This document shows, piece after piece, positions 8,429-33,178 of a stretch of DNA of 64,000 nucleotides. A program made the position numbers and the translations under genes. The stretch is taken from positions 695 through 64,694 of the forward strand of contig JACRIV010000014.1 of the NCBI GenBank assembly GCA_016220005.1, in the 5' to 3' direction. Origin of the DNA: Deltaproteobacteria bacterium (GTDB lineage: Bacteria > Desulfobacterota > Deferrimicrobia > Deferrimicrobiales > Deferrimicrobiaceae). The stretch's first letter is position 1. Each line of letters starts with the position of its first letter. The notes beneath the pieces are model-generated. The model worked only from the letters and a program-made list of their open reading frames with translations, searched no databases and was not told the DNA's origin.

Positions 8429-8432
8429 GGGG

Positions 8433-14770: not shown

Positions 14771-14778
14771 GCGCACGC

Positions 14779-14856: not shown

Positions 14857-14863
14857 TTCCTTC

Positions 14864-14963
14864 GTTGCCGTCCCGAGGGGGATTTGAACGCGAGCCCGCG
14901 CCGACCGGACGCCACTCCAGTTGCCGTCCCCAGGGGGATTTGAACCCGAAGCAGGCGCCACTC
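14864..14963. repeat. two tandem degenerate copies (56 and 44 nt) carrying an inverted copy of the tRNA-Glu T-arm/3' acceptor
   Basis: gttgccgtccc[g/c]agggggatttgaac is the reverse complement of the gggttcaaatccccctggggacg portion of the adjacent tRNA-Glu. Both copies end in gcgccactc. No complete cloverleaf could be drawn. Confidence 0.6.
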
Positions 14964-17350: not shown

Positions 17351-18730
17351 ATGGCGGACGATAAGCGCAGTCAATCCCCGATGGACAAAGTGTGGAATCT
17401 CTTCACCTCCCTGAAGCTCGCCATCACCCTGATCATCATCATGGCCGTCGCCTCCATCTTCGGGACGGTCATCGAGCAGAACCAGCCGATCGAAAAGTAC
17501 CGGCAGTTCTACAGCGACGCGACCATCAGGATGCTCGACGCCCTGAACCTCTTCGACATGTACCATTCCTGGTGGTTCCTCCTCCTGCTCGTGCTGTTCA
17601 CCGTGAACCTTTCGTGCTGCACACTCGACCGGCTGCCGCGGGTCGTGAAGGTCGTCCGGAACCCGAAGACGAGACTCGACGACGGTCTCGAGAAGACGCT
17701 CCCCCTGGTGGACCGGTGGAAGAAGAAAGGATCCCTGCAGGCCTGGGCCGAGAAATACGCGGAAGTCGTAGGGGGTGCGGTAGGGAAACCCCTCGTGACG
17801 CAGAACAGCGAGACGCTGCACCTCTATGCCGAAAGAGGCGTCGTCTCCCGCTTCGGCGTCTACGTGACCCATCTCTCCATCATTATTATTTTCATCGGGG
17901 CGATCATCGGCAACGTGTTCGGCTTCAAGGGATACGCCAACATCGTGGAGGGGCAGTCCGTGCGGTCGATCCCGACGCGGGGAGGCTCCCGGCCCGTCGA
18001 CCTGGGGTTCGAGGTGCGGTGCAACCGGTTCGCCGTCAGCTTCTACACGGACCAGTTCGGTAACCCGACGCAGCAACCAAAGGAATACGCCTCCGACCTG
18101 AGCGTCATCGAGAACGGGCGGGAAGTGCTCCGCAAGAAGATCGTCGTCAATGACCCCCTGCAGTACAAGGGGGTCTGGTTTTACCAGTCGAGCTACGGCC
18201 CGGCCGGCGGAGCCTCCGCCCGCGTCAGGGTCAGCAGCGCGAACGGAGGCCCGGTGGCGGATCTTTCGTTCCATGCGGGCCAGCAGGTGGAGATCCCGGG
18301 GTACGGGACCATCACCGGCGTGGATTACCAGCAGGACTACCGGGGGTTCGGCCCCGCCCTTCTGGTGGTCCTTAAGAAACCCGGCGGGCAGGCGACGGAG
18401 TTCTGGCTGCTGCAGGGGCGGCCCGATTCCGACCGGCAGAGACAGGATCCGTACTTTCTCTCCTTCGGGGGCCTGAGCCAGGCCTACTACACCGGTCTCC
18501 AGGTCGCCAGGGACCCCGGCGTGAACGTGGTATGGCTGGGATGCGCCCTCATGGTCCTCGGCATCATCATCGCGTTCTTCATGTCCCATCAGCGCGTATG
18601 GGTCCGCCTGACGCCTGCCGCCGACGGCCGCGTGGAGGTCGTCCTCGCCGGTTCGGCGTCCCGAAACAGGCTTGCTTTCGAAAGGAAATTTGAGAAAATA
18701 CAGGACGATTTGAAGGCGCTCGCGGTTTGA
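17351..18730 (+). CDS. resB: cytochrome c biogenesis protein ResB/Ccs1 (System II)
   Basis: N-terminal TM helices, a large periplasmic domain and a C-terminal TM with the conserved W-rich end. Sits immediately upstream of ccsA. Confidence 0.8.
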   Translation: MADDKRSQSPMDKVWNLFTSLKLAITLIIIMAVASIFGTVIEQNQPIEKYRQFYSDATIRMLDALNLFDMYHSWWFLLLLVLFTVNLSCCTLDRLPRVVKVVRNPKTRLDDGLEKTLPLVDRWKKKGSLQAWAEKYAEVVGGAVGKPLVTQNSETLHLYAERGVVSRFGVYVTHLSIIIIFIGAIIGNVFGFKGYANIVEGQSVRSIPTRGGSRPVDLGFEVRCNRFAVSFYTDQFGNPTQQPKEYASDLSVIENGREVLRKKIVVNDPLQYKGVWFYQSSYGPAGGASARVRVSSANGGPVADLSFHAGQQVEIPGYGTITGVDYQQDYRGFGPALLVVLKKPGGQATEFWLLQGRPDSDRQRQDPYFLSFGGLSQAYYTGLQVARDPGVNVVWLGCALMVLGIIIAFFMSHQRVWVRLTPAADGRVEVVLAGSASRNRLAFERKFEKIQDDLKALAV

Positions 18731-18776
18731 AGGCCCTTTCTTTCATTCCCGCAGTCGCAACAGGAGCAGCATCGCC

Positions 18777-19616
18777 ATGATCAATGTGCGTCTTTTCGAC
18801 TTGACTACCCTCTTGTTCGGCGTGGCCTCGGTGAACTACGTGGCCGCCCTCTACGGGAAGAGAGACACTCTCGCCCGCATCGGCACCTGGATCTGCGTGG
18901 CCGCGGCGGTCGTCTCGACCGCCGCTCTCGGCGTCCGGTGGGCCGAGTCCTACCGGATGGGGATCGGGCGGATCCCGGTCACGAACCTCTACGAGTCGCT
19001 CGTGTTCTTCGCGTGGGCGGTCAACCTCTTCTATCTCGTCGTGGAGTGGAAGTACAAGAACCGCACCTTCGGCGCCTTCGTCATGCCCATCGCCTTCCTG
19101 ACCATGCTGTTCGCCTTCACGAACGAGAGCAGCATCCAGCCGCTCGTGCCCGCCCTCCAGTCCTACTGGCTCCACGCCCACGTGATCACCTGCTTCATCG
19201 GGTACGCGGCCTTCGCCGTGTCTGCCGGCGTGGCGGCGATGTACCTGCTCAAGGCCAGGCGCGAGGAGTCCAAGACCCCGGGCGGGGTGGTCGGCCTCTT
19301 CCCCTCCAGCAAGGCGCTCGACGACCTGGTCTACAAGGCGATCATCTGGGGGTTCCCGTTCCTGACCGCCGGGATCATCACGGGGGCGGCTTGGGCGAAC
19401 TACGCATGGGGGACGTACTGGTCGTGGGACCCCAAGGAGACCTGGTCGCTCATCGTCTGGCTCGTGTACGCGGCGTTCCTTCACGCCCGGATCACCCGCG
19501 GCTGGCACGGCAAGCGGGCCGCGATCCTGTCGATCGCCGGCTTCCTGGCGACGGTGATGTGTTACCTCGGGGTCAACCTGGTGCTCTCCGGGCTGCATTC
19601 CTACGGCGGCTCGTAA
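18777..19616 (+). CDS. ccsA: cytochrome c-type biogenesis protein CcsA/ResC (haem export/lyase, System II)
   Basis: Multi-TM protein with the WWD-type Trp-rich motif AAWANYAWGTYWSWDPKETWS and conserved His residues. Confidence 0.85.
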   Translation: MINVRLFDLTTLLFGVASVNYVAALYGKRDTLARIGTWICVAAAVVSTAALGVRWAESYRMGIGRIPVTNLYESLVFFAWAVNLFYLVVEWKYKNRTFGAFVMPIAFLTMLFAFTNESSIQPLVPALQSYWLHAHVITCFIGYAAFAVSAGVAAMYLLKARREESKTPGGVVGLFPSSKALDDLVYKAIIWGFPFLTAGIITGAAWANYAWGTYWSWDPKETWSLIVWLVYAAFLHARITRGWHGKRAAILSIAGFLATVMCYLGVNLVLSGLHSYGGS

Positions 19617-19670: not shown

Positions 19671-20969
19671 ATGCGAAAGTCTGTCGGTTCCATCGGGGTG
19701 GCCGTACTGGTACTCGGGATTTCGGGTTTTCTCCGCGGTGAATCCCTTGCGGCGGATGCCTGCGTGACGGCGGAATGTCACGCGACGATGGGAAAAGCCG
19801 CCTTCGTGCATGGCCCCGTCGGGGTGATGCAATGCGCCGTGTGCCACCTGGAGGCGAAGAAGGGGCACCCGACGAAGAAGGGACCGGACTTCAAGCTGGC
19901 GGCGACAGGCAAGGCCCTCTGCGAGAAGTGCCACCAGCCGGTGGACAGGTTCGAGTACAAGCATACCCCCGTGAAGAAGGGGGAGTGCCTCGGCTGCCAC
20001 GACCCACACCAGTCTTCCGCGGCCAAACAGCTGAAGAAGGCCAAGACGTCGGAGCTGTGCCACACCTGCCACAAGAACACGCAGCAGGCGAAGAAGTTCC
20101 TCCACGGCCCCGTGGCCACCGGCGACTGCAACGTATGCCACAACCCCCACTCCTCCCCGAATCCCAAGCAGCTCGTCGCGCGGGGTAACGACGCCTGTTT
20201 CCTCTGCCACGAGGACCGCAAGGCCGAGTTCACCCGGAAGTACCCGCACAAGCCGGCCCAGGAGTCGTGCCTGAAATGCCACGACCCCCACAATGCGGAC
20301 CATCCCTTCATGCTGGCGAGCGAGGGGACAGGGCTTTGCCTCGGCTGCCACAAGAAGATGGAGGAGCACCTAAAGACCGCGGCCGTCAAGCACGGGGCCC
20401 TCCAGAAGGGGACGTGCACCACCTGCCACACCCCTCATTCGTCCGACTACCCGAGGCAGTTGAAGACGCACACCAAGGACATCTGCTACACCTGCCACAA
20501 GGATATGGGCGCCAAGGTCCGCGCGGCGAAGAGACTGCACGGTCCCGTCCAGCAGAACGACTGCTACGCATGCCACGATCCCCACGGGAGCAGGAACCCG
20601 TTGATCCTCAAGAAATACTTCCCGTCGGAGTTCTACAAGCCGTACGCGACGGAGAATTACGCGATGTGCTTCGACTGCCACAACAAGGACATCGCGCTGG
20701 ACAAGATCACGACGAAGCTTACGAACTTCCGCAACGGCGACACGAACATGCATTTCCTCCACGTGAACAAGGAGAAGGGGCGCTCCTGCAAGGCGTGCCA
20801 CGAAGTCCACGCAGGGAACCAGGACAAGCACATCCGCAAGGAAGTGCCGTTCGGCAAGGCATGGATGCTGCCCGTCACCTACACGAAAACCCAGAACGGG
20901 GGCACCTGCGTCGTCGGCTGCCACAAGCCGAAGACCTACGACCGCGTCAGCCCCGTGAAGTACGAATAG
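19671..20969 (+). CDS. multihaem cytochrome c with at least 13 CxxCH sites; repeated c7-like modules
   Basis: Signal peptide. 13 canonical CxxCH plus one CX4CH and one CX3CH site. Recurrent H-G-P-V...C..CH.PH spacing as in polymeric c7-domain cytochromes. Confidence 0.85.
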   Translation: MRKSVGSIGVAVLVLGISGFLRGESLAADACVTAECHATMGKAAFVHGPVGVMQCAVCHLEAKKGHPTKKGPDFKLAATGKALCEKCHQPVDRFEYKHTPVKKGECLGCHDPHQSSAAKQLKKAKTSELCHTCHKNTQQAKKFLHGPVATGDCNVCHNPHSSPNPKQLVARGNDACFLCHEDRKAEFTRKYPHKPAQESCLKCHDPHNADHPFMLASEGTGLCLGCHKKMEEHLKTAAVKHGALQKGTCTTCHTPHSSDYPRQLKTHTKDICYTCHKDMGAKVRAAKRLHGPVQQNDCYACHDPHGSRNPLILKKYFPSEFYKPYATENYAMCFDCHNKDIALDKITTKLTNFRNGDTNMHFLHVNKEKGRSCKACHEVHAGNQDKHIRKEVPFGKAWMLPVTYTKTQNGGTCVVGCHKPKTYDRVSPVKYE

Positions 20970-20979
20970 GAGGGGGGGT

Positions 20980-21990
20980 ATGAGCAGGTCCCGTCGTCGC
21001 GTCCCGTTGTTTGTATTCACCTTCCTCGCGGCGGTGTGTTTCTCGACGGTCCCGGGGACAGGGTCGGCGTTCCGGAACGTCAAGGAAGGCGCCCCGGCGA
21101 TCCCCTTCACCCTCAAGGACTTCGAGGGGAAGGATTTCGAGTTCAAGCCCGACTCGGGCAGGGTCACGATCCTGTCGTTCGTGAAGCTCGCGCAGGACCG
21201 GTCGAAGGACCAGCTCAGAGATCTCGTAGCCTTGCAGGGCGAGCTCGGGCCCAAGGGGGTGGACTTCCTCATCGTCTCGAGCTATACGGACACGCCCGAG
21301 GACGCCAAGAAGGTCGCCGCGGAGATGAACGTCAAGTTCCCGATCCTCCTGGACAAGGACCAGAGGGTCTACGGGGACTACGGGCTGTTCATCCTCCCCT
21401 CCACGGGCATCGTCGGGAAGGACGGGAAGTTCGCCTTCGAGCACTCCAGCCACGGGCGCGACTTCAAGGACGTGGTGGGGGGGAAAGCCAAGGTGCTCGC
21501 CGGGCTGATGACGGAAGAGGAGTACAAGAAGCTGGTCACGCCGGTCGAAGCGGTCCGGAAGAGCAAGGAGGAGAACGAAGCCGAGCGCTTGCTGGCTCTC
21601 GGGCGGACGCTGTTCAAGCGCGGCATGCCCGACAAGGCGGCCGATAAGTTCGCCAAGGCGGTGGAGCTCGACCCGAAGAACCCGGGGGGGCGCATCGCCT
21701 ACGGAGAGTCCCTGGTGGCGTTGAAGAAGTACGACGAGGCGCTCGTCCAGTTTCAGAAGGCGAAAGAGCTTTCTCCCGCGAGCAAGGATGCGCAGTTGGG
21801 CATCGGGACCGTGCATTTGGAGAAGGGCGAGCACGACAAGGCGATCCGGGAGATCTCCGAGGCGGCGATGCTCAACCCCAAGCCCGAGAAGGCGAATTTC
21901 TGGCTCGGGGTCGCCTACGAGAAAAAGGGAGATCTCCCGAATGCGGTGAAGTACTACCGAAAGGCCGTCGAGAAGCTCATCAAGGAGTAG
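20980..21990 (+). CDS. Cys-less thioredoxin-fold (TlpA/redoxin-like) domain fused to TPR repeats
   Basis: The N-terminal half aligns with the TlpA fold (bacterial thiol-disulfide oxidoreductase), but the WCxxC position reads SFVKLAQDRS with no cysteine. The C-terminal half carries TPR-like repeats. Confidence 0.6.
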   Translation: MSRSRRRVPLFVFTFLAAVCFSTVPGTGSAFRNVKEGAPAIPFTLKDFEGKDFEFKPDSGRVTILSFVKLAQDRSKDQLRDLVALQGELGPKGVDFLIVSSYTDTPEDAKKVAAEMNVKFPILLDKDQRVYGDYGLFILPSTGIVGKDGKFAFEHSSHGRDFKDVVGGKAKVLAGLMTEEEYKKLVTPVEAVRKSKEENEAERLLALGRTLFKRGMPDKAADKFAKAVELDPKNPGGRIAYGESLVALKKYDEALVQFQKAKELSPASKDAQLGIGTVHLEKGEHDKAIREISEAAMLNPKPEKANFWLGVAYEKKGDLPNAVKYYRKAVEKLIKE

Positions 21991-22007
21991 CCGGAGGAGC
22001 GGAAATC

Positions 22008-22727
22008 ATGGCGGCGATCCGTCCGAGATCCCGGTTCTTCCTGGTCTTCCTGGCCGTCGCGGCGGGGGGGATTCTCCTCCCCGCTTTTCCCGTATCCGGT
22101 GATCCCGGCAAGTCCCCCCTGGCGGTCCTTGCCCCGGGCGATGGCGCCCTGGTGTCGGCAGGGCGTGTTCTCGTCATCGGGAGAACGGCCGGGGAAGGGA
22201 TCGTGCGGGTGGAGATCGACGTGAACGGCAAGGGGAAGCAGTCCGTCCCGGTCGCCGGCGGGGGGTTTTCGGCTTCGGTCCCCATTGCCGCCGGCAGGAA
22301 CGTCATGCGGGTGAGCGCAGGGAAGGCGTCGGTCACGACCATTGTCTCCGCGGCGGCGAACCTCTCCGCATCGGGCAAGGGGGCATACGTCTACCACGAG
22401 GGGGTGGAGAAGTGCGCCGAATGCCACGGAGCGGGGAGGAAGGGATATGCCGTCGCTTCCCCGAAAGATTCCCTCTGCTACAGGTGCCACGACCGGGTGG
22501 ACGGAAAGAAGCATCTGCACGGCCCGATGGGGAGCGGAGACTGCACGGCGTGCCACGATCCGCACGGTTCGTCCCACAAGTCGCTGACGGTGGCGCGGCC
22601 CGACTCGCTGTGCGTCACGTGCCACGATCAGAGAAGTTCCGAAGGCCATATGAATAAGTCCAGGGGGAAGGCGTGCACGTCTTGTCACGACCCGCACTCG
22701 TCGGACCGATCATTCCTCCAGAAGTAG
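22008..22727 (+). CDS. pentahaem cytochrome c with an N-terminal beta-rich domain
   Basis: Signal peptide and five CxxCH motifs (CAECH, CYRCH, CTACH, CVTCH, CTSCH). Confidence 0.8.
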   Translation: MAAIRPRSRFFLVFLAVAAGGILLPAFPVSGDPGKSPLAVLAPGDGALVSAGRVLVIGRTAGEGIVRVEIDVNGKGKQSVPVAGGGFSASVPIAAGRNVMRVSAGKASVTTIVSAAANLSASGKGAYVYHEGVEKCAECHGAGRKGYAVASPKDSLCYRCHDRVDGKKHLHGPMGSGDCTACHDPHGSSHKSLTVARPDSLCVTCHDQRSSEGHMNKSRGKACTSCHDPHSSDRSFLQK

Positions 22728-22758
22728 TTGTCCGGGGGGAATGACTTTCAGGGGGGAG

Positions 22759-23892
22759 ATGATGGGAAGGAAGGGGAAGGCGGCGAAGGCCCTTGCCTCG
22801 CTTCTGCTTTTTGTCATCGGGTTGTATGCCGCCCCGAAGGCCGCCGCCGCGTTCAAGAACGTCCAGGGGGGGATGGAGGCGCCCGCTTTTCGCCTGAAGG
22901 ACGCGGCAGGCAACGAGGTTTCCCTCGACGCGTTCAGGAAGGAGAAGGCCGTGCTCGTCGTCTTCTGGGCGACGTGGAGCGGCCGGTCGCTTGCGGAGCT
23001 CAAGGACGTCCAGAAACTGCTCGCGGAGATGGAAGCGAAAGGCCTGAAGGCGGTCGCCGTCAACGTGGAGCACGAGCACATGACGGACGAGGACTTGCGG
23101 GCAATCAAGGATAAGGTCGGGGAGCTCAAGCTGACATACCCCGTCGTGTTCGACTCCGGCCTGGAGACGTTCCGCAGCTACGGAGTGGTTGCGGTCCCCT
23201 CCACGGCCATCCTGGGCGAGGGAGGGGTGGTCCGCAGCGCGGTCAACGGCTACCCGACCTTCGTCCTCGCCGAGATCAGGGAACAGGTGGAGGTGCTGCT
23301 GGGCATAAGGAAACCGGAGACCGCCGTGGCGGCGAAGGCGGACACGGCGCATAAGCCGACCCGGCAGGCGCTCCTGAACTACAACCTCGGGCGCAGGCTT
23401 TACGCTTCCGGAATGGCCGACAAGGCCGAGCCGAAGCTCAAGACCGCGGTCGGCGCGGACCCGAACTGGGCGGCTCCCCACGTGCTCCTGGGGGACATCT
23501 ATCTCGCGAAGGCGAGGAAGGACCCGAAGAAGGCCGAGGAGGCGAAGAAGGAGTTCGAGGCCGCCATTGCCGCGGACAAGGGAAACGTGGTGGCGAGGAC
23601 CGGTCTGGCCCGGGTATACTGGAACGCGGGCGCGGCCGCCGACGCCGAGAAGGAAGTCGGCGAGGCGCTTTCGATCAGCGGCTCGTATCCTCCGGCCCTG
23701 ATGCTCAAGGCCGCTGTTCTGGCCAGGAAGGGAAATCTCCCCGAGGCGGACAACCTGATCCGCAGCGCACTCGAGCTTTCCGGGAGGGACCCCGAGGCGC
23801 ATGCCCTGGCAGGACGCGTCTACGAGGAGGCGGGGGAGCTTCAGAAAGCCGCGGGAATGTACCGGAAGGCGTGGCAATTGATCGGGGAGTGA
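22759..23892 (+). CDS. Cys-less TlpA-like thioredoxin-fold domain (WATWSGRS in place of WCxxC) fused to TPR repeats; paralogue of 20980-21990
   Basis: VLVVFWATWSGRSLAELKDV matches the TlpA active-site context with both Cys replaced by Ser. C-terminal TPR repeats. Start chosen at an internal ATG with GGGGGGAGA upstream (ORF track 22741). Confidence 0.6.
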   Translation: MMGRKGKAAKALASLLLFVIGLYAAPKAAAAFKNVQGGMEAPAFRLKDAAGNEVSLDAFRKEKAVLVVFWATWSGRSLAELKDVQKLLAEMEAKGLKAVAVNVEHEHMTDEDLRAIKDKVGELKLTYPVVFDSGLETFRSYGVVAVPSTAILGEGGVVRSAVNGYPTFVLAEIREQVEVLLGIRKPETAVAAKADTAHKPTRQALLNYNLGRRLYASGMADKAEPKLKTAVGADPNWAAPHVLLGDIYLAKARKDPKKAEEAKKEFEAAIAADKGNVVARTGLARVYWNAGAAADAEKEVGEALSISGSYPPALMLKAAVLARKGNLPEADNLIRSALELSGRDPEAHALAGRVYEEAGELQKAAGMYRKAWQLIGE

Positions 23893-23912
23893 CGGGGGGC
23901 GGCACGGCAGAA

Positions 23913-24029
23913 ATGAGGACACGATTCATCGCGTTTCTGATTACCGCCGCGGCGGCCGGCACAGTGCTCGTGTACGGGATATACCGCGAGGAGATCGGCG
24001 AAGTCCTGTTCAACGCCGCGATGCTTTGA
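23913..24029 (+). CDS. possible 38-aa single-TM small protein (MRTRFIAFLITAAAAGTVLVYGIYREEIGEVLFNAAML)
   Basis: An intact ATG-to-TGA ORF with a hydrophobic core in the 165-nt gap before the NapH-like gene. Weak RBS. Below the ORF-track size cutoff. Confidence 0.25.
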   Translation: MRTRFIAFLITAAAAGTVLVYGIYREEIGEVLFNAAML

Positions 24030-24057
24030 CTGTCCTGCATCGGGGTCGGGTGATCCC

Positions 24058-24948
24058 GTGGCATTCCTGAAACGGCGGATCTTCCAGACGCTGGGGACCG
24101 TTCTGCCCAACTCCTACGTCCAGGGGTTTTCCCTTTCCCTGGCACACGGCGCGCTGAAAATCTCCCCGGCCCTGTACCAGGGATCGCTGAAGAGCATCTG
24201 CACGCCCCTCCTGAACTGTTACGCCTGCCCCTCGGCGCTCTTTTCCTGCCCCATCGGGACGCTGCAGCATTTCATGGTGACGGGGAACGTCCCCTATTAC
24301 GCGGCGGGCACGCTCTCTCTGGTGGGCGCTTCGGTGGGGCGCATGACGTGCGGCACCCTCTGCCCGTTCGGGTTCCTCCAGGACCTCCTCTACAAGTTCC
24401 GGAGCTGGAAGGTTTCGATCCCGGTCTGGACCCGCCACTTCCGGTATGCCGTCCTGGCCATCCTCGTCTTCCTGATCCCTTATCTCACCCACGAGAACTG
24501 GTTCTCCAAGCTCTGCCCCATGGGGACGCTGATCGGGGGGCTCACGTGGGTCACCCTCGAGCTGAACGTCCGGGCGATGATCCGTTACCTCTTCTGGGTG
24601 AAGATTTCCATCCTGCTCTTCTTCGTCACCACGTCGCTCCTGGTCAAGCGCCCCTTCTGCCGCGTCGTCTGCCCGCTGGGTGCGATCTTCTCCCTGTTCA
24701 ACAAGTCCAGTTTCATCCAGTTGGCATGGAACCCGGACACCTGCACCCGGTGCGGCAAGTGCCAGAAGATCTGCCCCGTGGACATCCGCCCGGACCGGAA
24801 CCAGACCAACCCGGATTGCCTCCGCTGCCTGGACTGCACGCGCTGCCCCAGCCTGAAGCTGACGACCGTCCTCCACAGGAACCCGTTCGCAATGCCGTCT
24901 CCGGCGGGCAAGGGAGCGGAGGGCGTCGAGGAGGTCCTTGCCCGTTGA
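24058..24948 (+). CDS. NapH/MauN/NosR-type membrane-bound polyferredoxin (4Fe-4S)
   Basis: GTG start. TM helices with CX3CP motifs (CGTLCP, CRVVCP). Two C-terminal ferredoxin clusters CTRCGKCQKICP and CLRCLDCTRCP. Confidence 0.75.
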   Translation: MAFLKRRIFQTLGTVLPNSYVQGFSLSLAHGALKISPALYQGSLKSICTPLLNCYACPSALFSCPIGTLQHFMVTGNVPYYAAGTLSLVGASVGRMTCGTLCPFGFLQDLLYKFRSWKVSIPVWTRHFRYAVLAILVFLIPYLTHENWFSKLCPMGTLIGGLTWVTLELNVRAMIRYLFWVKISILLFFVTTSLLVKRPFCRVVCPLGAIFSLFNKSSFIQLAWNPDTCTRCGKCQKICPVDIRPDRNQTNPDCLRCLDCTRCPSLKLTTVLHRNPFAMPSPAGKGAEGVEEVLAR

Positions 24949-25889
24949 CCGTCCGCAATCGACTCCCGCTCCTCCCGCTCCTCCTGCTCCTCCTCCTCAC
25001 GACTCCGACCGGCGCCGCCGAGGAGCCCCTCGTCCTCTTTCCTCCGGACCTTACCCTGGCCACGGAGGGGAAGATCAAGATCTTCGCCTACGTCCCCGGC
25101 GGGAAGACCCCGCTCTCCGTCTCGGTGAACGGAATCGCGAGGGATCCGTTGAAGGGGGAGGCGTTCCGGAGCGGGGAAGCGGAGCTGTCCCCCGGGATGA
25201 ATCTCCTCGACGTGGGAGGGAAATACCTTCGCGTCTTCCTGATCCCCGGCACGAAAATGGAGCAGTTTCGCATGCCCACGGAAAAAGAGGACGCCCCGCT
25301 CGTCTACCGATCCTTCCGCCTGCACCCCGCGCTGGATGACGGCTGCGCGGGGTGCCACACCCTCGAGGGCGGAAAGCTCAAGGCGATAGACCAGAAAGAG
25401 GCGTGCTACGCCTGCCACGACAATTTCGAGAAGGAGGAGGAGGGGAAGAAGAAATACGTGCACAGCCCCGTGGCCGCCGGGGAGTGCACGGGGTGCCACG
25501 ACCCGCATTTTTCCAGCCGTACCAAGCTTCAAAAGCTCGAAAAGGGGTGTATGGAGTGCCACGATCCCTTCCCGACGGAAGGGGTCGTCCACTATCCCGT
25601 CGGGAACGGGGAGTGCACGGCGTGCCACAGCCCGCACGCGGGGCCGGCCCCGAAGCAGCTCGTCCGCGCCGGCAACGCCCTTTGCCTGGGATGTCACGAG
25701 CACGCCCATATCCAGCACCGGTCCGCGACGGTACTGAAAAATCCGGAAATCACCCAGATTCCCCCCGACATTCCGAGAGAGAAAGACCAGTTGTCCTGCC
25801 TTGCGTGCCATCGGCCCCACCAGTCCGGCGAGCGGCGTCTTTTCCGCAGGAATCAGGGTGAGCTATGCAAGACCTGCCATCTGGTCTAG
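24945..25889 (+). CDS. octahaem cytochrome c
   Basis: Probable TTG start overlapping the upstream stop. Signal peptide. Eight CxxCH motifs. The coding frame is confirmed through the stop at 25889. Confidence 0.7.
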   Translation: MTVRNRLPLLPLLLLLLLTTPTGAAEEPLVLFPPDLTLATEGKIKIFAYVPGGKTPLSVSVNGIARDPLKGEAFRSGEAELSPGMNLLDVGGKYLRVFLIPGTKMEQFRMPTEKEDAPLVYRSFRLHPALDDGCAGCHTLEGGKLKAIDQKEACYACHDNFEKEEEGKKKYVHSPVAAGECTGCHDPHFSSRTKLQKLEKGCMECHDPFPTEGVVHYPVGNGECTACHSPHAGPAPKQLVRAGNALCLGCHEHAHIQHRSATVLKNPEITQIPPDIPREKDQLSCLACHRPHQSGERRLFRRNQGELCKTCHLV

Positions 25890-25918: not shown

Positions 25919-27415
25919 ATGCGATTTGTTCCCCGTTCCCTGTTCTTCAAGATGTCCCTGTCAATCAGCCTCGTGCTGGCGGTCATCTTCGGGGCGTCCT
26001 CCTACATCACCTTCCGGATCCAGTCCGAACAGGCGCTCGACGCCACCCGCAGCCAGGCGATCCTGCTCACGAGGGCGTTGAAGAACACGATCCGCATCGG
26101 GATGGAGACGGGACACATCGAGTCCCTGATGTCGATCTTCCACACCGTGGGGGCGCTGCCGGGCGTGGAGAAGCTGCGGGTCTTCGACGAGGAGGGCCGG
26201 ATCCTCTACTCGGCGAAGCTGTCGGAAATCGGGAAGCTCACCGACGAGCTCGACTACGCGGTCTACCGGAGCCCCGAGCGGAGCACCCCGTTCCAGAGCG
26301 CCAATACGGGCCACCGCTCGTTCTGCATGGTGGAGCCGGTCGAGAACGAACCGCGGTGCCAGCGATGTCACCGCAGGGAGATCGAGACCCTCGGTGTCCT
26401 CGACGTCTGCCTGTCCATGGAGGAAACCGAGAAAAAGATCGAGTTCAACCGGCTCCTCATGCTCTCCTTCACGGGGCTGGCGATCGTCCTCACCTCGGGC
26501 ATGACCAGCATCCTCCTGAAGCGGTTCGTCTCCAATCCCGTCGCGAAGCTCGTGGGCACGATGGAATCGGTGGAGGCCGGGAAGCTGGACGGGAGGGTGG
26601 ATATCCGCAGCGGCGACGAGCTCGGCCGCCTCGGGAACAGCTTCAACGAGATGATCCGCAAGCTCTCCGAGGCCCAGGCCGAGATCGAGAAGTTCCACCA
26701 CCGGCAGCTGGCACGGGCGGACCGGCTGGCGTCCCTGGGCGAGATGGCCGCCGGGATCGCCCACGAGATCAAGAACCCCCTCGCCGGCATCTACGGCGCG
26801 GCGCAGGTCCTCTCCAAGGAGTTCCCCGAGGGGGACCCCAAGCGCGAGATCCTGGACGAGATGATGGCGCTCATGAAGCGGCTCGACAACACCATCAGGG
26901 ATCTCCTGAACTTCTCCCGGTACACGGAGCCGCAGTTCTCGGAGGCCAGCTTGAACGACGTGATCGACAAGGTCCTGTTCCTCGTGAAGCAGATCCCCGA
27001 AGGGAAGCGGGCGACCATCACCCGGGAGTTCGACCCCGCGATGCCGGAGATCGAGATGGACCAGGAACAGATCAAGCAGGTCTTCCTGAACCTGGTGCTC
27101 AACGCCCTCCAGGCGAAGCCGGGAGGCTGCTCCCTCACCATCCGCACCTATTCGGAAGTCCCGGCGGACGTGCCCGACGTCAAGCATAACGCCCGCTTCG
27201 TGACGGCCTCGGTGACCGACGACGGCCCGGGGATTCCCGCCGACAAGATCGGGAAGATCTTCCAGCCGTTTTTCACCACGAAGGAAGCCGGAACGGGCCT
27301 GGGCCTCTCGATGACCCGGAAGATCCTCGATCTCCACGACGGGTGGATCACCGCTTCCAGCGAGGTGGGGAAAGGGGCCACCTTCCGGGTCTTCCTCCCC
27401 AAGGTCAAGCTGTGA
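25919..27415 (+). CDS. sensor histidine kinase with a haem c-binding (CxxCH) periplasmic sensor domain
   Basis: TM1 (residues about 10-32), a periplasmic domain containing CQRCH, TM2, HAMP, H-box GIAHEIKNPLAGI, and HATPase_c (DDGPGI, GTGLGL). Confidence 0.8.
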   Translation: MRFVPRSLFFKMSLSISLVLAVIFGASSYITFRIQSEQALDATRSQAILLTRALKNTIRIGMETGHIESLMSIFHTVGALPGVEKLRVFDEEGRILYSAKLSEIGKLTDELDYAVYRSPERSTPFQSANTGHRSFCMVEPVENEPRCQRCHRREIETLGVLDVCLSMEETEKKIEFNRLLMLSFTGLAIVLTSGMTSILLKRFVSNPVAKLVGTMESVEAGKLDGRVDIRSGDELGRLGNSFNEMIRKLSEAQAEIEKFHHRQLARADRLASLGEMAAGIAHEIKNPLAGIYGAAQVLSKEFPEGDPKREILDEMMALMKRLDNTIRDLLNFSRYTEPQFSEASLNDVIDKVLFLVKQIPEGKRATITREFDPAMPEIEMDQEQIKQVFLNLVLNALQAKPGGCSLTIRTYSEVPADVPDVKHNARFVTASVTDDGPGIPADKIGKIFQPFFTTKEAGTGLGLSMTRKILDLHDGWITASSEVGKGATFRVFLPKVKL

Positions 27416-27519
27416 CGGAGTGAAACTTCTCCCGGGTGCATTCCGTATACATATCGTGGGCCCTACCCCGGGTGTTCGGTTATAATCGATAAGATTATCT
27501 TAAAGGACCCCCCCAGAAG

Positions 27520-28971
27520 ATGGCGCGTTCCAAGATACTGGTGGTGGACGACGAGCGGATGATCCGCTGGTCCATCCAGCAGGCGCTCTCCAAGGACGGG
27601 CACGCCGTGGCGACGGTGGAGACCGGCGAGGAGGCGGTCGCCCAAGCCACCGACGACACCCCCGACCTCGTCCTGCTGGACATCACCCTTCCCGGAATCG
27701 ACGGGATCGAGGTCCTGCGCCGCCTGAAGGCCCACGAACCCGCCATCACGGTGGTCATGGTCACCGCGACCGAGGAGCTGAAGACCGCCGTCGAGGCGAT
27801 GCGCCTGGGGGCGTATGACTACGTCAGCAAGCCGTTCGACATCGACCGCCTCCGGGTCATCGTCCAGAATGCCCTGGACCGGCACGAGCTGAGCCAGGAA
27901 GTGGAGTTCCACCGGAAGGAATCCGTAAAGAAATACGGTTTCCACCGGATCATCGGGGTCAGCCGCAAGTTGAAGGACGTGGTGGAGATCGCCCGGAAGG
28001 TGGCGAAGTCCGAGGCGGCGACCGTCCTCCTCCAGGGGGAGAGCGGCACCGGAAAGGACCTGCTCGCCCAGGCGATCCACTACGAAAGCAGCCGGGCCAC
28101 CCGCCCCTTCATCCCCATCAACTGCACCGCGCTCCCGGAGGAGCTTCTCGAGTCGGAGCTGATGGGCCACGAGAAGGGCGCCTTCACCGACGCCAAGACG
28201 ACCAAGAAGGGGCTCTTCGAGGTGGCGGTCGGCGGAACGATCTTCCTGGACGAAATCGGCGACATGAAGCCGGGGCTCCAGGCCAAGCTGCTGCGGTTCA
28301 TCGAGGGCAAGGCGTTCCGCCGCGTGGGGGGCCACCGGGACATCTCGGTGGACGTCCGGATCATCGCGGCGACGAACAGCAACCTGGCGGCACTCGTCAA
28401 GAGCGGACAGTTCCGGGAGGACCTCTTTTTCCGGCTGAACGTGATCCCGATCCACATCCCTCCCTTGCGGGAGCGGAGGGAGGACATCCTGCCGCTGGCG
28501 GGACACTACCTTGCCGAGTTTTCCAGCGACTTCAAGCGGGACCTCCGCCGGTTCTCGGAGAGGGCGAAGAGACAAATGCTCTCGCACGACTGGCCGGGGA
28601 ACGTCCGGGAGTTGAGGAACGTAATCGAGCGGGCGATCATCCTGGGCGCCGAGGGGCAGGTGGACACCCTCGACCTGCCGGTTGCGGAGAGCCGGCTGGA
28701 CTGGGGTGCGTACACCGCCGGATCCCCGGACAGTGCAGGGGGAGAGGCCTCGGCGGAACCGGTTGGAGATTCTCCTGCCGGCCCGCCGGAGGGACCAGGC
28801 GCCGTGTTCATTCTTCCCCCCATGGGGATTGTGTTGGAGGACGTGGAGAGGGACTTCATCCGGCAGGCGCTGGAGATGACCCAGGGGAACCAGACAAAGG
28901 CCGCGGAATCACTCGGATTGACGCGGGATGCCTTACGGTACAGGATGAAAAAATACGGTTTCTTGCAATAG
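27520..28971 (+). CDS. sigma-54-dependent response regulator, NtrC family
   Basis: REC domain. AAA+ motifs GESGTGKD, GAFTDA and ESELMGHE. C-terminal Fis-type HTH. Confidence 0.9.
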   Translation: MARSKILVVDDERMIRWSIQQALSKDGHAVATVETGEEAVAQATDDTPDLVLLDITLPGIDGIEVLRRLKAHEPAITVVMVTATEELKTAVEAMRLGAYDYVSKPFDIDRLRVIVQNALDRHELSQEVEFHRKESVKKYGFHRIIGVSRKLKDVVEIARKVAKSEAATVLLQGESGTGKDLLAQAIHYESSRATRPFIPINCTALPEELLESELMGHEKGAFTDAKTTKKGLFEVAVGGTIFLDEIGDMKPGLQAKLLRFIEGKAFRRVGGHRDISVDVRIIAATNSNLAALVKSGQFREDLFFRLNVIPIHIPPLRERREDILPLAGHYLAEFSSDFKRDLRRFSERAKRQMLSHDWPGNVRELRNVIERAIILGAEGQVDTLDLPVAESRLDWGAYTAGSPDSAGGEASAEPVGDSPAGPPEGPGAVFILPPMGIVLEDVERDFIRQALEMTQGNQTKAAESLGLTRDALRYRMKKYGFLQ

Positions 28972-29100
28972 CGGCGATTCACTTCACGCATGCTCAACTG
29001 GGCATTTTCCCTCAAGGCGGGTGATATGGCCGCACGGTAAAAACGAGGCTAAGGCCTCTATTAAAAAAGGTATTCCAAGAAGATAAGGGAAACGCGAATG

Positions 29101-29117
29101 TTGGCACCGAAAATGCT
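29101..29117 (+). promoter_or_regulatory. sigma-54 (-24/-12) promoter: TTGGCACCGAAAATGCT
   Basis: TGGCAC at 29102-29107 and GC at 29115-29116 with the canonical spacing. Lies 130 nt downstream of the sigma-54 activator gene and upstream of the NHL-protein/14-haem cytochrome operon. Confidence 0.6.
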
Positions 29118-29184
29118 CAATTACCGGAGGGGGCAGATGGAAAGGGAAACGTGTGGCAGTTCACGCAGTGCAGGGGGTATGAAG

Positions 29185-30771
29185 ATGTTTTCAAACGGAA
29201 AGGACAGAATGGGCAACTTCTGGAAAAGAGGAATTTTCATCGTTTTTCTGACAGCGATTCTGTTTACATCCGTCGCCGGAGTGGGCCTGGCGGAACTCCC
29301 CCCTCCGACCTGGATGCCGGGGTTCCCGATCATGGCCGGGCCGCAGCTGATGCTGATGTGGTCGCCGGTCGCCGGGGCGGTCAAGTACAAGGTGTTCGTG
29401 AACGGCAAGATGGTCGCCGAAACCGCGGTTTTTCAGCATTTCATGCCGGCGCCCGAGGAGGCCGGTGAGTACAAGGTCAAGGTCGTCGCCGTGGACGCGT
29501 CGGGCAAGGACAGCCCGCCGTCGAGGGAGTGGGTGACGAAGGTGTTCAAGCTCGCCCCCCCCGCAACCGTGTACGATCGGGCCACCGAGAAGTCCGTCAA
29601 CCTCCGCTGGGAGGTGGTCCCGTCCGCGATGGTCTATAACGTTTACAAGCGGGTTGGGAAGGCGACCGAGTACAAGCTGCTGGCCTCCGTGCAGGATACC
29701 TCCTACACCGACTCCGACGTGAAGAAGGACGTGGAGATGCGCTATGCGATTTCCGCCAAAGACGCCTCGGGGAAGGAAAGCGCAAAGTCGAAAGATGTCG
29801 TCGCCATGATCAAGACCGAGGTCATTTCCAAGGCCGCCTATCAGGATCTCATTCCGATCACGAGCAAGGTTCTCATGGTGATGCGGGGCGGGACCCTGCC
29901 CGACGGGCGGGTCGACACGGTGAAGAACCCCGGGGGGGTCACGGAGGTCGAAGGACAGCTTTTCGTCCCTGACGCAACCCGCGGCATCGTCCACGTGTTC
30001 GACCGGGCTTCCGGGGAGTACAAGGGCGCCATCGGCAAGCAGGGGAACGGCCCGGGCCAATTGAACCGGCCGATCGGCATCTCCCATGACCGGGACGGCA
30101 ACCTCCTCGTCTGCGACGCCTTCATGGCCAAGATCGTCCGGCTGAAGCCGTCCGGCGAATTCGTCGACGAATTCCCGTTGCCGCGGTACGTCAACGCGAA
30201 GCTGGACATCAATCTGCAGGCCGGGCCCTCCGACATCCGGCAGCTGTCCACCGGCGAGTTCCTGGTGGTGGACAACGCCAACAGCCGGATCATGCTCCTC
30301 GATCCCTCGGGGAAATACGTCAAAGACATCGCATTCACGGATGCGAAGGGGGCGACCGGGTTTGCCAGGCCCACCTCCATCGACGTCGACTCCAAGGACC
30401 ATCTCTACATCGCCGATGCGCTCAACGGCCGCATCGTGGTAGCGGAAAAGAGCGGCAAGGTCCTGCTCTCCATCGGGCAGCCGGGGGATATCGTCGGGGA
30501 ATTCGGCGGGCTTCTGGGCGTCTGTGCCATCGAGGACATGAAATGGGTGATCGGGGTCGACTCCAAGCACGCCAACCTCCAGATCTTCAGCGCGGAAACG
30601 GGGAAATACCTGTATTCGGTGGCATCCGAGGACAAGAAGGTCGCACTCCTCCTGTCGATCCCGCAGCGTGCGACGCGACTTTCCGACACGACGATCGCGG
30701 TGTCGGAGGCGTTGATCGACTCGAAGGGCGGGGGGATCAAGATCATCTCGATCGACAAGCAGGTGAAGTGA
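29185..30771 (+). CDS. secreted NHL-repeat beta-propeller protein with N-terminal Ig/FN3-like domains
   Basis: Signal peptide. NHL-like blades (GPGQLNRPIGISHDRDGNLLVCD, SRIMLLDPSGKYV, HLYIADALNGRIVV). The start was moved downstream of the sigma-54 promoter to the ATG at 29185, which has an AGGGGG RBS. Confidence 0.6.
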   Translation: MFSNGKDRMGNFWKRGIFIVFLTAILFTSVAGVGLAELPPPTWMPGFPIMAGPQLMLMWSPVAGAVKYKVFVNGKMVAETAVFQHFMPAPEEAGEYKVKVVAVDASGKDSPPSREWVTKVFKLAPPATVYDRATEKSVNLRWEVVPSAMVYNVYKRVGKATEYKLLASVQDTSYTDSDVKKDVEMRYAISAKDASGKESAKSKDVVAMIKTEVISKAAYQDLIPITSKVLMVMRGGTLPDGRVDTVKNPGGVTEVEGQLFVPDATRGIVHVFDRASGEYKGAIGKQGNGPGQLNRPIGISHDRDGNLLVCDAFMAKIVRLKPSGEFVDEFPLPRYVNAKLDINLQAGPSDIRQLSTGEFLVVDNANSRIMLLDPSGKYVKDIAFTDAKGATGFARPTSIDVDSKDHLYIADALNGRIVVAEKSGKVLLSIGQPGDIVGEFGGLLGVCAIEDMKWVIGVDSKHANLQIFSAETGKYLYSVASEDKKVALLLSIPQRATRLSDTTIAVSEALIDSKGGGIKIISIDKQVK

Positions 30772-30876: not shown

Positions 30877-33099
30877 ATGAGAAAGACGCTTCTGTTCTTG
30901 CTCGCGGCCGCAATGGTCGTGCTTTTCTCGCTTCCCGCCTCCGCCGCGATTGTCGGCAGCAAGCACGACATGACCGGCTTGACGGGAATCACCTGGGCGG
31001 GCACGCAGGGTACCGCGGGCGCCTGCTCCTTCTGTCACATCCCGCACAAGGCGACCGGTGCGAAGGCATGGTCCGGTGCGCCGGGCGGTACCCTGGGCGT
31101 CATCGGCACGATCGGGCAGTTGTGCTATGACTGCCACAACCCCACCGGGAAGTTCCAGACCAGCCCGACCGTCGTCCAGATCAACGTGTTCGACACGCCG
31201 ACCTACCACGGTCTGACCAGCGGCAGCCTGCCGACGGGCGACACGATGGTCGGCTCGGGCCTGCCGTACGTCAACGCCGCGGCTGACAACATCACCCCCG
31301 GCCTGATGGAGTGCTCCACCTGCCACGACCCGCACAACACCGCGGCGGGTTCGGACCCGTTCCTCCAGGGGGCCAATACCGTCAACAACATCTGCCAGAA
31401 GTGCCATCAGGGCCGCGGCGACGTCGCCGTGGCGACCGCGCAGGGTTTCGGCGCGGCCGGCAACCCCGGGACCCACCCCGTGAACGTGTTGGCCAACGCT
31501 GCCAGTGCGACCAAGCCGACGACCGTTCCGGCAACGATGAGCCAGGCATACCGGGGCTCGGTGGTGTCCATCACCGGGGCTACGCCGAGAACCAATGCCT
31601 GGCAGGCCGGCGGACACCTCAACAACGGCCTTACTACGGGAACCGTCGTCTGCGTTACCTGCCATTCGATCCACGGCAGACAGGACGCGGCCCAGACCAC
31701 CGTCGTGGTCTTTACCGACAACACCGACGCGGGCGCCGCCAGGAAGACGCTGCTGTCGGTCGTCGACTCGAACAACGCCTCCAGCCTGTGCCAGGGGTGC
31801 CACGGGACCAACCCGGGCAACGCGGCCAACTTCACCCACCCGGTGAACGTGGCCACTCCCGACACCACGATCTTCAGCACCACGACCTCCCCTTATCAGT
31901 TGGGGCTGGGGACCGGGAACGCCAAGGCGCTCTGCCGCTCCTGCCACGGCGTCCACCCCGCCTCGACCGGCCGCGTAGCGACGGCGCAGACCCCGCTCCT
32001 GTACTCGGCGCTGGAAGGGGCGACGCCGTTCTGCAGCCAGTGCCATCCCGGCTCGGCGACGTTTATCGGAAACCACCACCCGGCCAACGTGCCGTGGTCC
32101 TCGGGAGTGGCGGGGATTGCGGCCAACGCTACCGCCCTCGGCCTGAACAACTCCGCCTGGGCGACCACGAACAACATCCAGTGCTACAACTGCCATGCCG
32201 GCCACAACGATCTCGACAACACCTCGAAGCTCCGCATCGCCAAGACGGCGGGCGTCTGGGGAAGCACGGCGAACACGCTTACCACGACCGGGTTCAGAGG
32301 GGCCTGGACCGCACAGTGCGTGGGGTGCCACTCGGGATACCCCGCGTTCTACACGGCGAACCAGGACGGCCTCCGTTCCCAGGGCAGCCACTTCGTGGGC
32401 AACGTTTCGACCGCGACCCCGAACCTCATGGACTACGTGTTCGCGGGGACCTGGCCGGCCAGCACCACGGCGTGGTCCTACTATGAAGGCACGACCACGG
32501 CTCCCAGGGTGGCCTGCCAGTCCTGCCATACCCTCATGAACAACGGCCTCCCGCGCACGGCCACGCAGCCCCTGCTGCTGGGGAACTACAGCGACAACCT
32601 GGAGGCCCAGGCGATCGGCACCGGGAACGGCCCTGGCTTGTGCCGCAGGTGCCACATCCCGACCCAGGACAAGTCGGCGTCAGCCGCCAACACCTGGTTC
32701 ACCGGGTACCAGACGACCGACACGCGTACTACGCTCATCCAAGCGACCCACCCTCTGGAGAAGATCCAGTCGGGCGCGGCCACGAACATCGCGACGTATC
32801 CGATCGCAGCCGGCGCCTATGTGACGTATCACACCGCCCCAGGGACCAACACGAACAACGTGAACTGCGAATCGTGCCACAGCGCCCACGGGACCTACGT
32901 GGGAATGGGCGGCTACATCCTGAAGGCCGCGTCCGGCGGGGCCGGAGGCACGAACTACTCCGGGAACTTCTCTCCGTCAGCCTCACCGACCAACTGGACG
33001 ACGATCCAGGGGCTGACCCGGGCGAGCTGGTTCCCGACTACGAAGGACGAGACCGGGTTCTGCAACCTGTGCCACGGTCAAGGCACGAAGGCGAAGTGA
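30877..33099 (+). CDS. large secreted 14-haem cytochrome c, Thr/Gly/Asn/Ala-rich
   Basis: Signal peptide. 14 canonical CxxCH motifs spread over 740 aa. Low-complexity T/G/N-rich linkers. Strong RBS AAGGAGGAAAGG. Confidence 0.85.
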   Translation: MRKTLLFLLAAAMVVLFSLPASAAIVGSKHDMTGLTGITWAGTQGTAGACSFCHIPHKATGAKAWSGAPGGTLGVIGTIGQLCYDCHNPTGKFQTSPTVVQINVFDTPTYHGLTSGSLPTGDTMVGSGLPYVNAAADNITPGLMECSTCHDPHNTAAGSDPFLQGANTVNNICQKCHQGRGDVAVATAQGFGAAGNPGTHPVNVLANAASATKPTTVPATMSQAYRGSVVSITGATPRTNAWQAGGHLNNGLTTGTVVCVTCHSIHGRQDAAQTTVVVFTDNTDAGAARKTLLSVVDSNNASSLCQGCHGTNPGNAANFTHPVNVATPDTTIFSTTTSPYQLGLGTGNAKALCRSCHGVHPASTGRVATAQTPLLYSALEGATPFCSQCHPGSATFIGNHHPANVPWSSGVAGIAANATALGLNNSAWATTNNIQCYNCHAGHNDLDNTSKLRIAKTAGVWGSTANTLTTTGFRGAWTAQCVGCHSGYPAFYTANQDGLRSQGSHFVGNVSTATPNLMDYVFAGTWPASTTAWSYYEGTTTAPRVACQSCHTLMNNGLPRTATQPLLLGNYSDNLEAQAIGTGNGPGLCRRCHIPTQDKSASAANTWFTGYQTTDTRTTLIQATHPLEKIQSGAATNIATYPIAAGAYVTYHTAPGTNTNNVNCESCHSAHGTYVGMGGYILKAASGGAGGTNYSGNFSPSASPTNWTTIQGLTRASWFPTTKDETGFCNLCHGQGTKAK

Positions 33100-33136: not shown

Positions 33137-33178
33137 GGTGCCGGCCCCTGGGATTTAAGGGGCCGGCACCTGCTTCTT
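33137..33178 (+). terminator. rho-independent terminator
   Basis: 13-bp perfect stem GGTGCCGGCCCCT/AGGGGCCGGCACC followed by TGCTTCTT. Confidence 0.7.

Follow-up and report, generated by a model that had tools for sequence, protein, structure and literature searches.

We describe a sensor kinase and a sigma-54 activator that are encoded next to each other at positions 25919-28971 of a 64,000-nucleotide stretch of deltaproteobacterial DNA, which is referred to at its full length as the window. With a probability of roughly 0.7, the two proteins form a periplasm-sensing two-component system of the haem-c PAS-like sensor family known from Geobacter, which controls the downstream genes for an NHL-repeat protein and a cytochrome with 14 haem motifs. 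The locus is a well-supported further example of this sensor family, whose regulon can be predicted with unusual clarity, and not a new kind of system. The features on which this reading is built are the following.

25919 to 27415, + strand: sensor histidine kinase of 498 amino acids, defined by its open reading frame (ORF), Pfam matches and orthologues
25952 to 26014, + strand: first transmembrane segment (TM1), about residues 12-32, Kyte-Doolittle windows >1.4
26015 to 26452, + strand: periplasmic sensor domain, residues 33-178, PAS-like/PDC fold, PF21563
26102 to 26104, + strand: codon of Met62, the predicted distal axial haem ligand (equivalent to Met60 of GSU0935)
26357 to 26371, + strand: CQRCH, residues 147-151, the predicted covalent attachment site of haem c, with His151 as proximal ligand
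26453 to 26518, + strand: second transmembrane segment (TM2), about residues 179-200, from hydropathy, followed by KRF and HAMP
26762 to 26764, + strand: codon of His282 in the H-box AHEIKNPL, the predicted autophosphorylation site, from the HisKA match
27520 to 28971, + strand: NtrC/AtoC-type response regulator of 483 amino acids, from Pfam and motif positions
29102 to 29117, + strand: sigma-54 type -24/-12 element TGGCAC-CGAAA-ATGCT, with GG at 29103-4 and GC at 29115-6
29137 to 30771, + strand: secreted NHL-repeat/six-bladed beta-propeller protein, from Pfam DUF5128 and NHL
30877 to 33099, + strand: c-type cytochrome of 740 amino acids with a signal peptide and exactly 14 CxxCH motifs, the predicted main regulated product
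33137 to 33170, + strand: strong hairpin of 13 bp, 11 of them G-C, closing the NHL-cytochrome transcription unit

The kinase consists, in this order, of TM1, a haem-c PAS-like periplasmic domain, TM2, HAMP, HisKA and HATPase_c. Pfam places HAMP at residues 200-250, HisKA at residues 273-336 (57.1 bits) and HATPase_c at residues 381-495 (89 bits), and the ZraS kinase core in the PDB is matched with E=1.4e-38. Both ORFs of 25919-28971 run co-directionally and show a strong GC bias at the third codon position. CQRCH is the sole CxxCH motif of the 498-residue kinase and lies between the two transmembrane segments, as an earlier, sequence-only reading of this DNA had noticed; when the loop is shuffled at constant composition, a CxxCH turns up in 0.2% of cases. 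According to the positive-inside rule, positive charge is expected both at the N-terminus and in the stretch that follows TM2, and it is found at both sites (MRFVPRSLFFK and KRF, respectively). Because there are exactly two transmembrane segments and the kinase core needs cytoplasmic ATP, the loop of residues 33-178 (146 residues) is assigned to the periplasm. Thus, in the topology predicted from hydropathy and charge, the loop with the CxxCH motif must face the periplasm, and the motif lies neither in the cytoplasm nor inside a membrane helix.

The loop also proved to be homologous to the Geobacter haem-c sensor domains and does not just carry their motif, which agrees with the family assignment of the sequence-only reading. 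PF21563 (Mcp40H-20_sensor) matches residues 82-168 with 29.3 bits, compared with a gathering score of 27. A phmmer search with the loop alone retrieved the sensor domain of GSU0935 (3B42, E=5.6e-5) and also that of GSU0582 (3B47), with 'NE.RCQ.CH' aligned, and a profile of 40 mono-haem members matched 3B42 (E=1.8e-15) and 3B47 (E=1.8e-12) over nearly the full domain. VENEPRCQRCH of the kinase pairs with PFPNEQRCQSCH of 3B42, at the conserved position behind the 'P-I-x-N-E' strand, and the counterpart of CQRCH itself in 3B42/3B47 is CQSCH.

When 1.84 billion representatives were searched exhaustively with HMMER, 427 representative clusters of sensor-domain relatives were obtained at E<=1e-3. 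CxxCH is present in 148 of the 155 sensor sequences examined (149 from this search and six fragments from an earlier one), and most of the seven sequences without the motif are short fragments. In a conservation alignment of 85 relatives with 20-45% identity, Met62 (82/85), Cys147 (84/85) and His151 (81/85) are near-invariant, as are Asn143, Gly93 and Gly159. The second cysteine of CxxCH occupies its column in 51/85 relatives, while a di-haem subfamily has Cx4CH there, and all five intact kinase orthologues retain CxxCH. In the profile alignment, the invariant methionine corresponds to residue 26 of the 3B42 chain (the Met of 'DGYMMKG') and the histidine of CxxCH to chain residue 110. The haem ligands of GSU0935 are Met60 on the distal and His144 on the proximal side (PMC8396549). 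Since residues 26 and 110 of 3B42 are Met60 and His144, all four haem-binding residues are present in the kinase loop.

The fold of the domain was modelled with AlphaFold2 (AF2) from a 40-sequence alignment, which gave a predicted local distance difference test (pLDDT) score of 90.2 and a predicted template modelling (pTM) score of 0.83. The model comprises a helix at 2-35, a second helix at 39-49, five strands and a C-terminal helix. Its top match in Foldseek is 3b42_B (E=2e-7), and the next matches are the PDC/sCache sensors WalK (TM-score 0.70-0.74), KinD, DctB, CitA, DcuS and Tlp3. The PDC fold mostly binds small molecules without cofactors, as illustrated by the fold matches CitA, DcuS, DctB and Tlp3, and the CxxCH could therefore be read as a motif without haem that binds metal or works as a redox-active dithiol, within a PDC/sCache domain of the ordinary ligand-binding kind. 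This is highly improbable, because two homologous crystal structures carry haem c covalently at the aligned CxxCH, the distal methionine is co-conserved in 82/85 relatives, and the motif faces the periplasm where ResB and CcsA act, both of which are encoded in the same gene cluster. From the conserved residues and the homologous structures, the kinase very probably binds haem covalently in its sensor domain.

Full-length relatives (n=87 sampled) mostly contain HAMP (82/87) and HisKA (58/87), and others carry cyclase or HD outputs. A large sister subfamily of the sensor domain (P0017, P0030, P0035, P0040 and others) carries a second CxxCH within an insertion, at about residues 113-125, and many of its members show Cx4CH (e.g. 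CSTAACH) at the canonical haem site. This combination suggests di-haem sensors similar to GSU0591/GSU0599. Further relatives of 440-770 amino acids (P0019, P0021, P0022 and P0025) contain three haem sensor domains in tandem.

The partner of the kinase had been named an NtrC-type enhancer-binding protein (EBP), and its domain composition supports this class: Response_reg (113 bits), Sigma54_activat (227 bits), AAA_lid_14 and HTH_8 (56.8 bits) are all matched in Pfam. Asp54 is found in the REC domain, Walker A (GESGTGK) at residue 173, GAFTDA at residue 220 and Walker B (FLDEIG) at residue 242. The best similarity in NCBIfam is to AtoC, NtrC and ZraR. As all of these scores are far below the equivalog cut-offs, the pair is not orthologous to the Ntr, Ato or Zra systems. 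A second two-component pair is encoded at 6263-9806 (+). Its kinase of 721 amino acids has a HAMP-HisKA-HATPase core and a large N-terminal region and contains no CxxCH, and its sigma-54 response regulator (8433-9806) has a canonical GAFTGA motif.

The sequence-only reading had also placed a sigma-54 promoter 130 nt downstream of the regulator gene. The sequence TGGCACCGAAAATGCT at 29102-29117 (+) indeed begins 130 nt past the regulator stop codon and deviates by one mismatch from TGGCAC-N5-TTGCW. Within the whole 14-42.7 kb cluster, no second sigma-54-like site (<=3 mismatches) is found between genes on the + strand, and at the same threshold the intergenic gaps of this cluster contain no further sites that could serve autoregulation or the upstream genes. 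The background frequency of such sites is about 3-4.5e-5 per strand position, which translates into about 0.005-0.01 expected sites per intergenic region. Correctly spaced GG-N10-GC sites with <=2 mismatches nonetheless occur in each of the five related loci for which a check was possible.

Locus L003, between regulator and target: TGGTACGAAACATGCT
Locus L006, between regulator and target: TGGCATCAAACATGCT
Locus L005, between regulator and target: CGGCATATTGTTTGCA
Locus L024, between regulator and target, perfect consensus with 0 mismatches, in a locus whose sensor domain is 38% identical to that of the window: TGGCACAATTATTGCT
Locus L002, directly before an 8-haem homologue of the window cytochrome: TGGCATATGAGTTGCA

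Being the sole intergenic site of its cluster, standing out from a low background per region and having counterparts in related loci, the element at 29102 is credible. On these comparisons the promoter is quite likely real, and the regulator paired with the kinase probably acts on it.

The counterparts belong to a conserved gene arrangement. Orthologues of the kinase with 74-89% identity are found in six loci from metagenome-assembled genomes (MAGs) that are labelled Deltaproteobacteria, delta proteobacterium or (uncultured) bacterium. These six loci share the order cytochrome, TlpA-TPR protein, Fer4_5 protein, cytochrome, kinase, regulator, propeller protein and cytochrome, and the order of the module upstream of the kinase is the same in L001-L006, L024, L025 and L027. 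In the far more distant L024 the full order is repeated from ResB to the peptidyl-prolyl isomerase (PPIase), and L025 and L027 retain the upstream module together with the kinase. The more distant kinases of L027, L028 and L029 are likewise partnered with sigma-54 regulators, and in L029 a sigma-54 site follows immediately after the regulator gene. Word-indexed searches for relatives from cultured organisms returned metagenomic fragments only.

L002 has a rearranged order, in which the regulator is followed by PPIase, propeller protein, hairpin, promoter and the 8-haem cytochrome. Because the promoter directly precedes the cytochrome in this locus and the NHL gene lies upstream of the promoter, the cytochrome (cyt740 type) appears to be the constant target. 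The kinase gene of L006 (10001-11495) contains frameshifts with 8 stops in straight translation, and its neighbouring genes are intact. It was excluded from the sensor alignment, and its disruption is probably an error of long-read assembly rather than the mark of a pseudogene.

Several observations weigh against the proposed circuit. The root-mean-square deviation (rmsd) between the AF2 model and 3B42 in Foldseek is large (13.5 A), so that the superposition is poor; such a deviation is expected, because the model is a monomer and the crystal form a helix-swapped dimer (PMC3460858). The sigma-54 contact loop of the regulator (residues 220-225) reads GAFTDA and not GAFTGA, and this is kept in all orthologues including L024. 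GAFTDA is among the natural variants that are expected to keep activity in EBPs of Desulfovibrio vulgaris (PMC4641369). Moreover, rpoN is not encoded within the 64-kb window, where the presence of two EBP genes indicates that the genome uses sigma-54. The L025 kinase is not followed by a regulator, and the kinase-regulator pair of L027 is followed by unrelated housekeeping genes and has no sigma-54 site. Because of these two arrangements, the link between the pair and the NHL/cytochrome target is not universal.

The promoter element faces two objections of its own. Over the entire window, a site with <=1 mismatch has no statistical significance, as 0.97 are expected and 63/100 shuffles contain at least one. 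In addition, only 20 nt separate the -12 GC from the conserved in-frame ATG 29137 that follows it, and for this reason a canonical start site would fall within the Shine-Dalgarno sequence GGAGG. Both points would fit a chance match, with read-through out of the regulator gene, or a sigma-70 promoter, accounting for the transcription of the downstream genes. This explanation is very unlikely: at about 0.005-0.01 expected sites per intergenic region, sites are nevertheless present in the window, L003, L005, L006, L024 and L002, and the region 28972-29136 contains no sigma-70-like site.

The short distance to the ATG is itself a conserved property. The spacing of 20 nt between GC and ATG is identical in three loci (window 29102-29190; L003 13242-13330; L006 13170-13260), which share the conserved GGAGGGGGCAG-ATG. 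When compared with L003 and L006, the NHL protein of the window could start at the conserved ATG 29137 or at ATG 29185. The 16 codons after the first ATG (MGTVMCV.SR..GGAN in L003/L006) differ mainly at synonymous positions, which suggests that the stretch after 29137 is coding. The NHL gene therefore probably starts at 29137, so that hardly any 5' leader would remain for a canonical sigma-54 start. This leaves two options, a very short leader or an atypical transcription start site at the 29102 promoter, with ATG 29185 being the alternative gene start. A small conserved hairpin is located at 29149-29166 of the window, and no leader RNA was recognised near 29.1 kb with Rfam, whose only matches, two tRNAs, lie elsewhere.

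Binding sites for the activator were also searched for, and the outcome counts against the circuit as well: the five orthologous upstream regions have no inverted repeat in common, and no 8-mer is shared among the five intergenic regions, even when one mismatch is allowed. Only a weak G-rich half-site, 'GGGG(G)AT', occurs about 75-100 nt upstream. In L003 and L006, the -24 element is preceded at about 90-95 nt by a shared palindrome, GGGGGAT(T/A)TCCCCC, to which only GGGCATTTTCCC corresponds in the window at a similar distance. This palindrome is a weak lead and not a site.

The missing activator site also bears on the question of whether the pair, although real, mainly controls the upstream module or distant genes, with another EBP (e.g. 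the one at 8433-9806) serving the 29102 promoter. The most widely conserved association, seen in L024, L025 and L027, is indeed the one between the upstream module (multihaem cytochrome, TlpA-TPR and Fer4_5 proteins) and the kinase, L027 does not have the downstream target, and the window encodes the second sigma-54 regulator. Such an arrangement is rather improbable, however, as no sigma-54-like site (<=3 mismatches) is present in any other intergenic gap between 14 and 42.7 kb, and the site is found just downstream of the regulator gene in five or six loci and in L029, too. Furthermore, two-component EBPs commonly act on adjacent operons, as documented in the regulome table of D. vulgaris (PMC4641369).

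Under the preferred reading, in which the pair controls the NHL and cytochrome genes, the main product is a cytochrome for which 14 haems had been claimed; the motif count in the 740-residue protein confirms this number. A comparison of this cytochrome with solved cytochromes, including those that form nanowires, gave no sequence match at E<=1 except for one spurious match. The two target genes are only 25-35% identical between L003, L005, L006, L002 and the window, whereas kinase and regulator of the same loci are 74-89% identical and the upstream neighbours 55-86%. This pattern suggests that the target is a fast-evolving and probably surface-exposed module under a conserved controller.

The kinase resides in a run of + strand genes of about 25 kb (16873-41585), which includes two further parts.

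17351 to 19616, + strand: ResB (CcsB) and CcsA of System II cytochrome c maturation (ResB 358.7 bits, Cytochrom_C_asm 193.7 bits)
19671 to 25889, + strand: conserved upstream module of six genes, ending 29 nt before the kinase start

As ResB and CcsA belong to the same cluster, machinery for the maturation of periplasmic CxxCH proteins is encoded 7 kb upstream of the kinase, and judged by its gene content it could attach haem to the periplasmic CxxCH of the kinase. The upstream half of the cluster opens with a 4-haem c3-type cytochrome, which is followed by ResB, CcsA and a 13-15-haem cytochrome of the 'doubled CXXCH' type. The latter is the first member of the six-gene module, which continues with a TlpA-like thioredoxin-TPR protein, a 5-haem cytochrome, a second TlpA-TPR protein, a NapH-like Fer4_5 membrane protein and an 8-haem cytochrome. 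After the kinase unit, the cluster encodes another four thioredoxin-fold proteins, a PPIase of the double-rotamase type, cytochromes with 7 and 8 haems and a TPR membrane protein of 635 amino acids. Altogether, it holds seven c-type cytochromes, whose haem motifs number from 4 to about 15, and six TlpA/ResA-like thioredoxin-fold proteins, two of which are fused to TPR. The cluster looks like a dedicated island for cytochrome assembly and electron transfer, and it was not matched to a named system.

These components can be combined into a working model. The kinase would be inserted with its N-terminus inside and two transmembrane helices, and ResB/CcsA would attach one haem c to Cys147 and Cys150, with His151 serving as proximal ligand. 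Reduction of the haem, or the loss or gain of nitric oxide (NO) or carbon monoxide (CO), would then toggle the distal position between water and Met62, as in GSU0935 and GSU0582. In these two proteins, the ferric haem is high-spin with His/water coordination and the ferrous haem low-spin with His/Met coordination (PMC8396549, PMC3460858). As Met62 would be located at the end of the long N-terminal helix into which TM1 extends, changes at the distal haem position could move the transmembrane helices, and this movement would alter the autophosphorylation of His282 through TM2 and HAMP. Phosphotransfer to Asp54 would induce AAA+ oligomerisation of the NtrC-type regulator, which would open the sigma-54 closed complex at 29102-29117 in an ATP-dependent manner. 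As a result, the genes for the NHL propeller and the 14-haem cytochrome would be switched on, up to the hairpin at 33137-33170. In which direction the system responds cannot be inferred from the sequence.

By analogy with the Geobacter domains, the odds are slightly better than even that the physiological signal is the redox state rather than a gas ligand. The same hardware could serve another signal if the haem senses a gas or small ligand, i.e. NO, CO or possibly O2 or sulfide, which displaces Met62. For GSU0582 and GSU0935, NO binding is documented with oxidised as well as reduced haem and CO binding with ferrous haem, and Met60 is displaced upon binding (PMC8396549, PMC3460858). In addition, the unrelated Cache_heme c family is reported to bind NO (PMC12889525, 10.64898/2026.05.25.727664). 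A gas sensor is nevertheless unlikely at this locus, as the neighbourhood consists entirely of cytochromes and maturation factors, with no genes for NO or CO detoxification or metabolism nearby, and the Geobacter literature favours sensing in the redox range, with midpoint potentials of the haem-c sensor domains of -156 and -251 mV (PMC8396549). Sequence alone cannot separate the two signals.

A more speculative and rather doubtful extension of the redox-sensing circuit is that no diffusible signal sets the state of the sensor haem, which would instead exchange electrons directly, haem to haem, with the periplasmic multihaem cytochromes encoded in the same cluster. The pair would then act as dedicated controller of a conserved and so far undescribed island for electron transfer and cytochrome assembly in uncultured subsurface bacteria of a Deltaproteobacteria-like kind. 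If this holds true, the kinase would gauge how 'backed-up' the extracellular electron transfer (EET) chain is, and sigma-54 would turn on a fast-evolving, probably cell-surface cytochrome/propeller module as acceptors change.

The family of haem-c periplasmic sensors was defined in 2006-2008 and now has a Pfam entry. To our knowledge, only two haem-c sensor domains, both of chemoreceptors, have been studied biochemically. With these two, GSU0935 and GSU0582 (3B42, 3B47, PF21563), the window domain shares the family by hidden Markov model (HMM) and fold and the position between TM1 and TM2 ahead of HAMP. It also shares the 'NE..C..CH' haem site, the distal methionine on the N-terminal helix and a length of about 135-146 residues (PMC8396549, PMC3460858). 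In contrast, the window domain is only about 26-27% identical to them, and its output is a HisKA/HATPase kinase that addresses a sigma-54 transcription factor, whereas GSU0935 and GSU0582 act via a methyl-accepting chemotaxis protein (MCP) signalling domain on CheA. Haem binding, potentials and ligand binding were measured for the Geobacter proteins, while the window domain is known from sequence and a model. Different from Geobacter, the lineage of the window is uncultured and found in subsurface and groundwater metagenomes.

According to the citation of Londer et al. 2006 in PMC3460858, ten haem-c periplasmic sensor domains are present in chemotaxis and two-component proteins of G. sulfurreducens, and GSU0591 and GSU0599 are di-haem sensors of Geobacter (PMC3831638). 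Like other Geobacter haem-c sensors, the window kinase is a signal-transduction protein whose periplasmic sensor carries CxxCH, and its kinase architecture is the commonest one among the relatives sampled. It is of the mono-haem type, while the sister subfamily resembles the di-haem GSU0591/GSU0599 in its extra CxxCH and Cx4CH. Searches of the available literature library, including one for 'GsuTCS1', turned up no characterised kinase of this family, no mapped regulon of one and no characterised haem-c kinase with a sigma-54 partner. PcrS/PcrR of perchlorate reducers was considered as a precedent for a haem-c kinase and rejected, as its sensor is unrelated and the cofactor is unknown.

With respect to its signalling modules, the pair resembles NtrB/NtrC, AtoS/AtoC and ZraS/ZraR: the kinase core scores best against AtoS/ZraS models, the regulator combines REC, AAA+ and a Fis-type HTH, and the target promoter is of the -24/-12 type. 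It deviates from these systems by its scores far below the equivalog cut-offs, an unrelated sensor domain and the GAFTDA motif. The surrounding cluster resembles the Uet-type EET clusters of Tenderiales and Gallionella (PMC10734462) by its parts list, which includes a doubled-CXXCH cytochrome, a small c3/c7-type cytochrome, an NHL propeller and a PPIase. Different from Uet-type clusters, it adds ResB/CcsA, several TlpA-like thioredoxins and the embedded kinase-regulator pair, and no porin gene was identified in the window.

Two regions of the window that are remote from the kinase have features of their own. The segment 45726-49175 (- strand) has a GC content of 42%, compared with 64% in the window, and encodes a methyltransferase, an unassigned ORF and a Wzx-type polysaccharide flippase within a cluster of glycosyltransferase and sugar-nucleotide genes. 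This is typical of a horizontally exchanged O-antigen/exopolysaccharide (EPS) cassette. At 14695-14949, tRNA-Lys(UUU) and tRNA-Glu(UUC) are directly followed by two 30-nt direct repeats (14864-14893 and 14920-14949) that are 93% identical and 56 nt apart. The GGGGGATTTGAAC core of the 14864-14949 repeats resembles a tRNA T-arm on the opposite strand, and the repeats may be what is left of tRNAs or the scar of a former integration.

The locus leaves the understanding of how such sensors or sigma-54 activators work unchanged. It provides, though, a compact and testable circuit that comprises a sensor haem, a kinase, a sigma-54 activator together with a conserved promoter, and an operon of two genes, one of them for a 14-haem cytochrome. 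Genes for the maturation machinery and for candidate redox partners lie beside it. If confirmed, the circuit would provide a first input-output map for the haem-c sensor family and a regulatory handle on a multihaem cytochrome cluster of an uncultured lineage.

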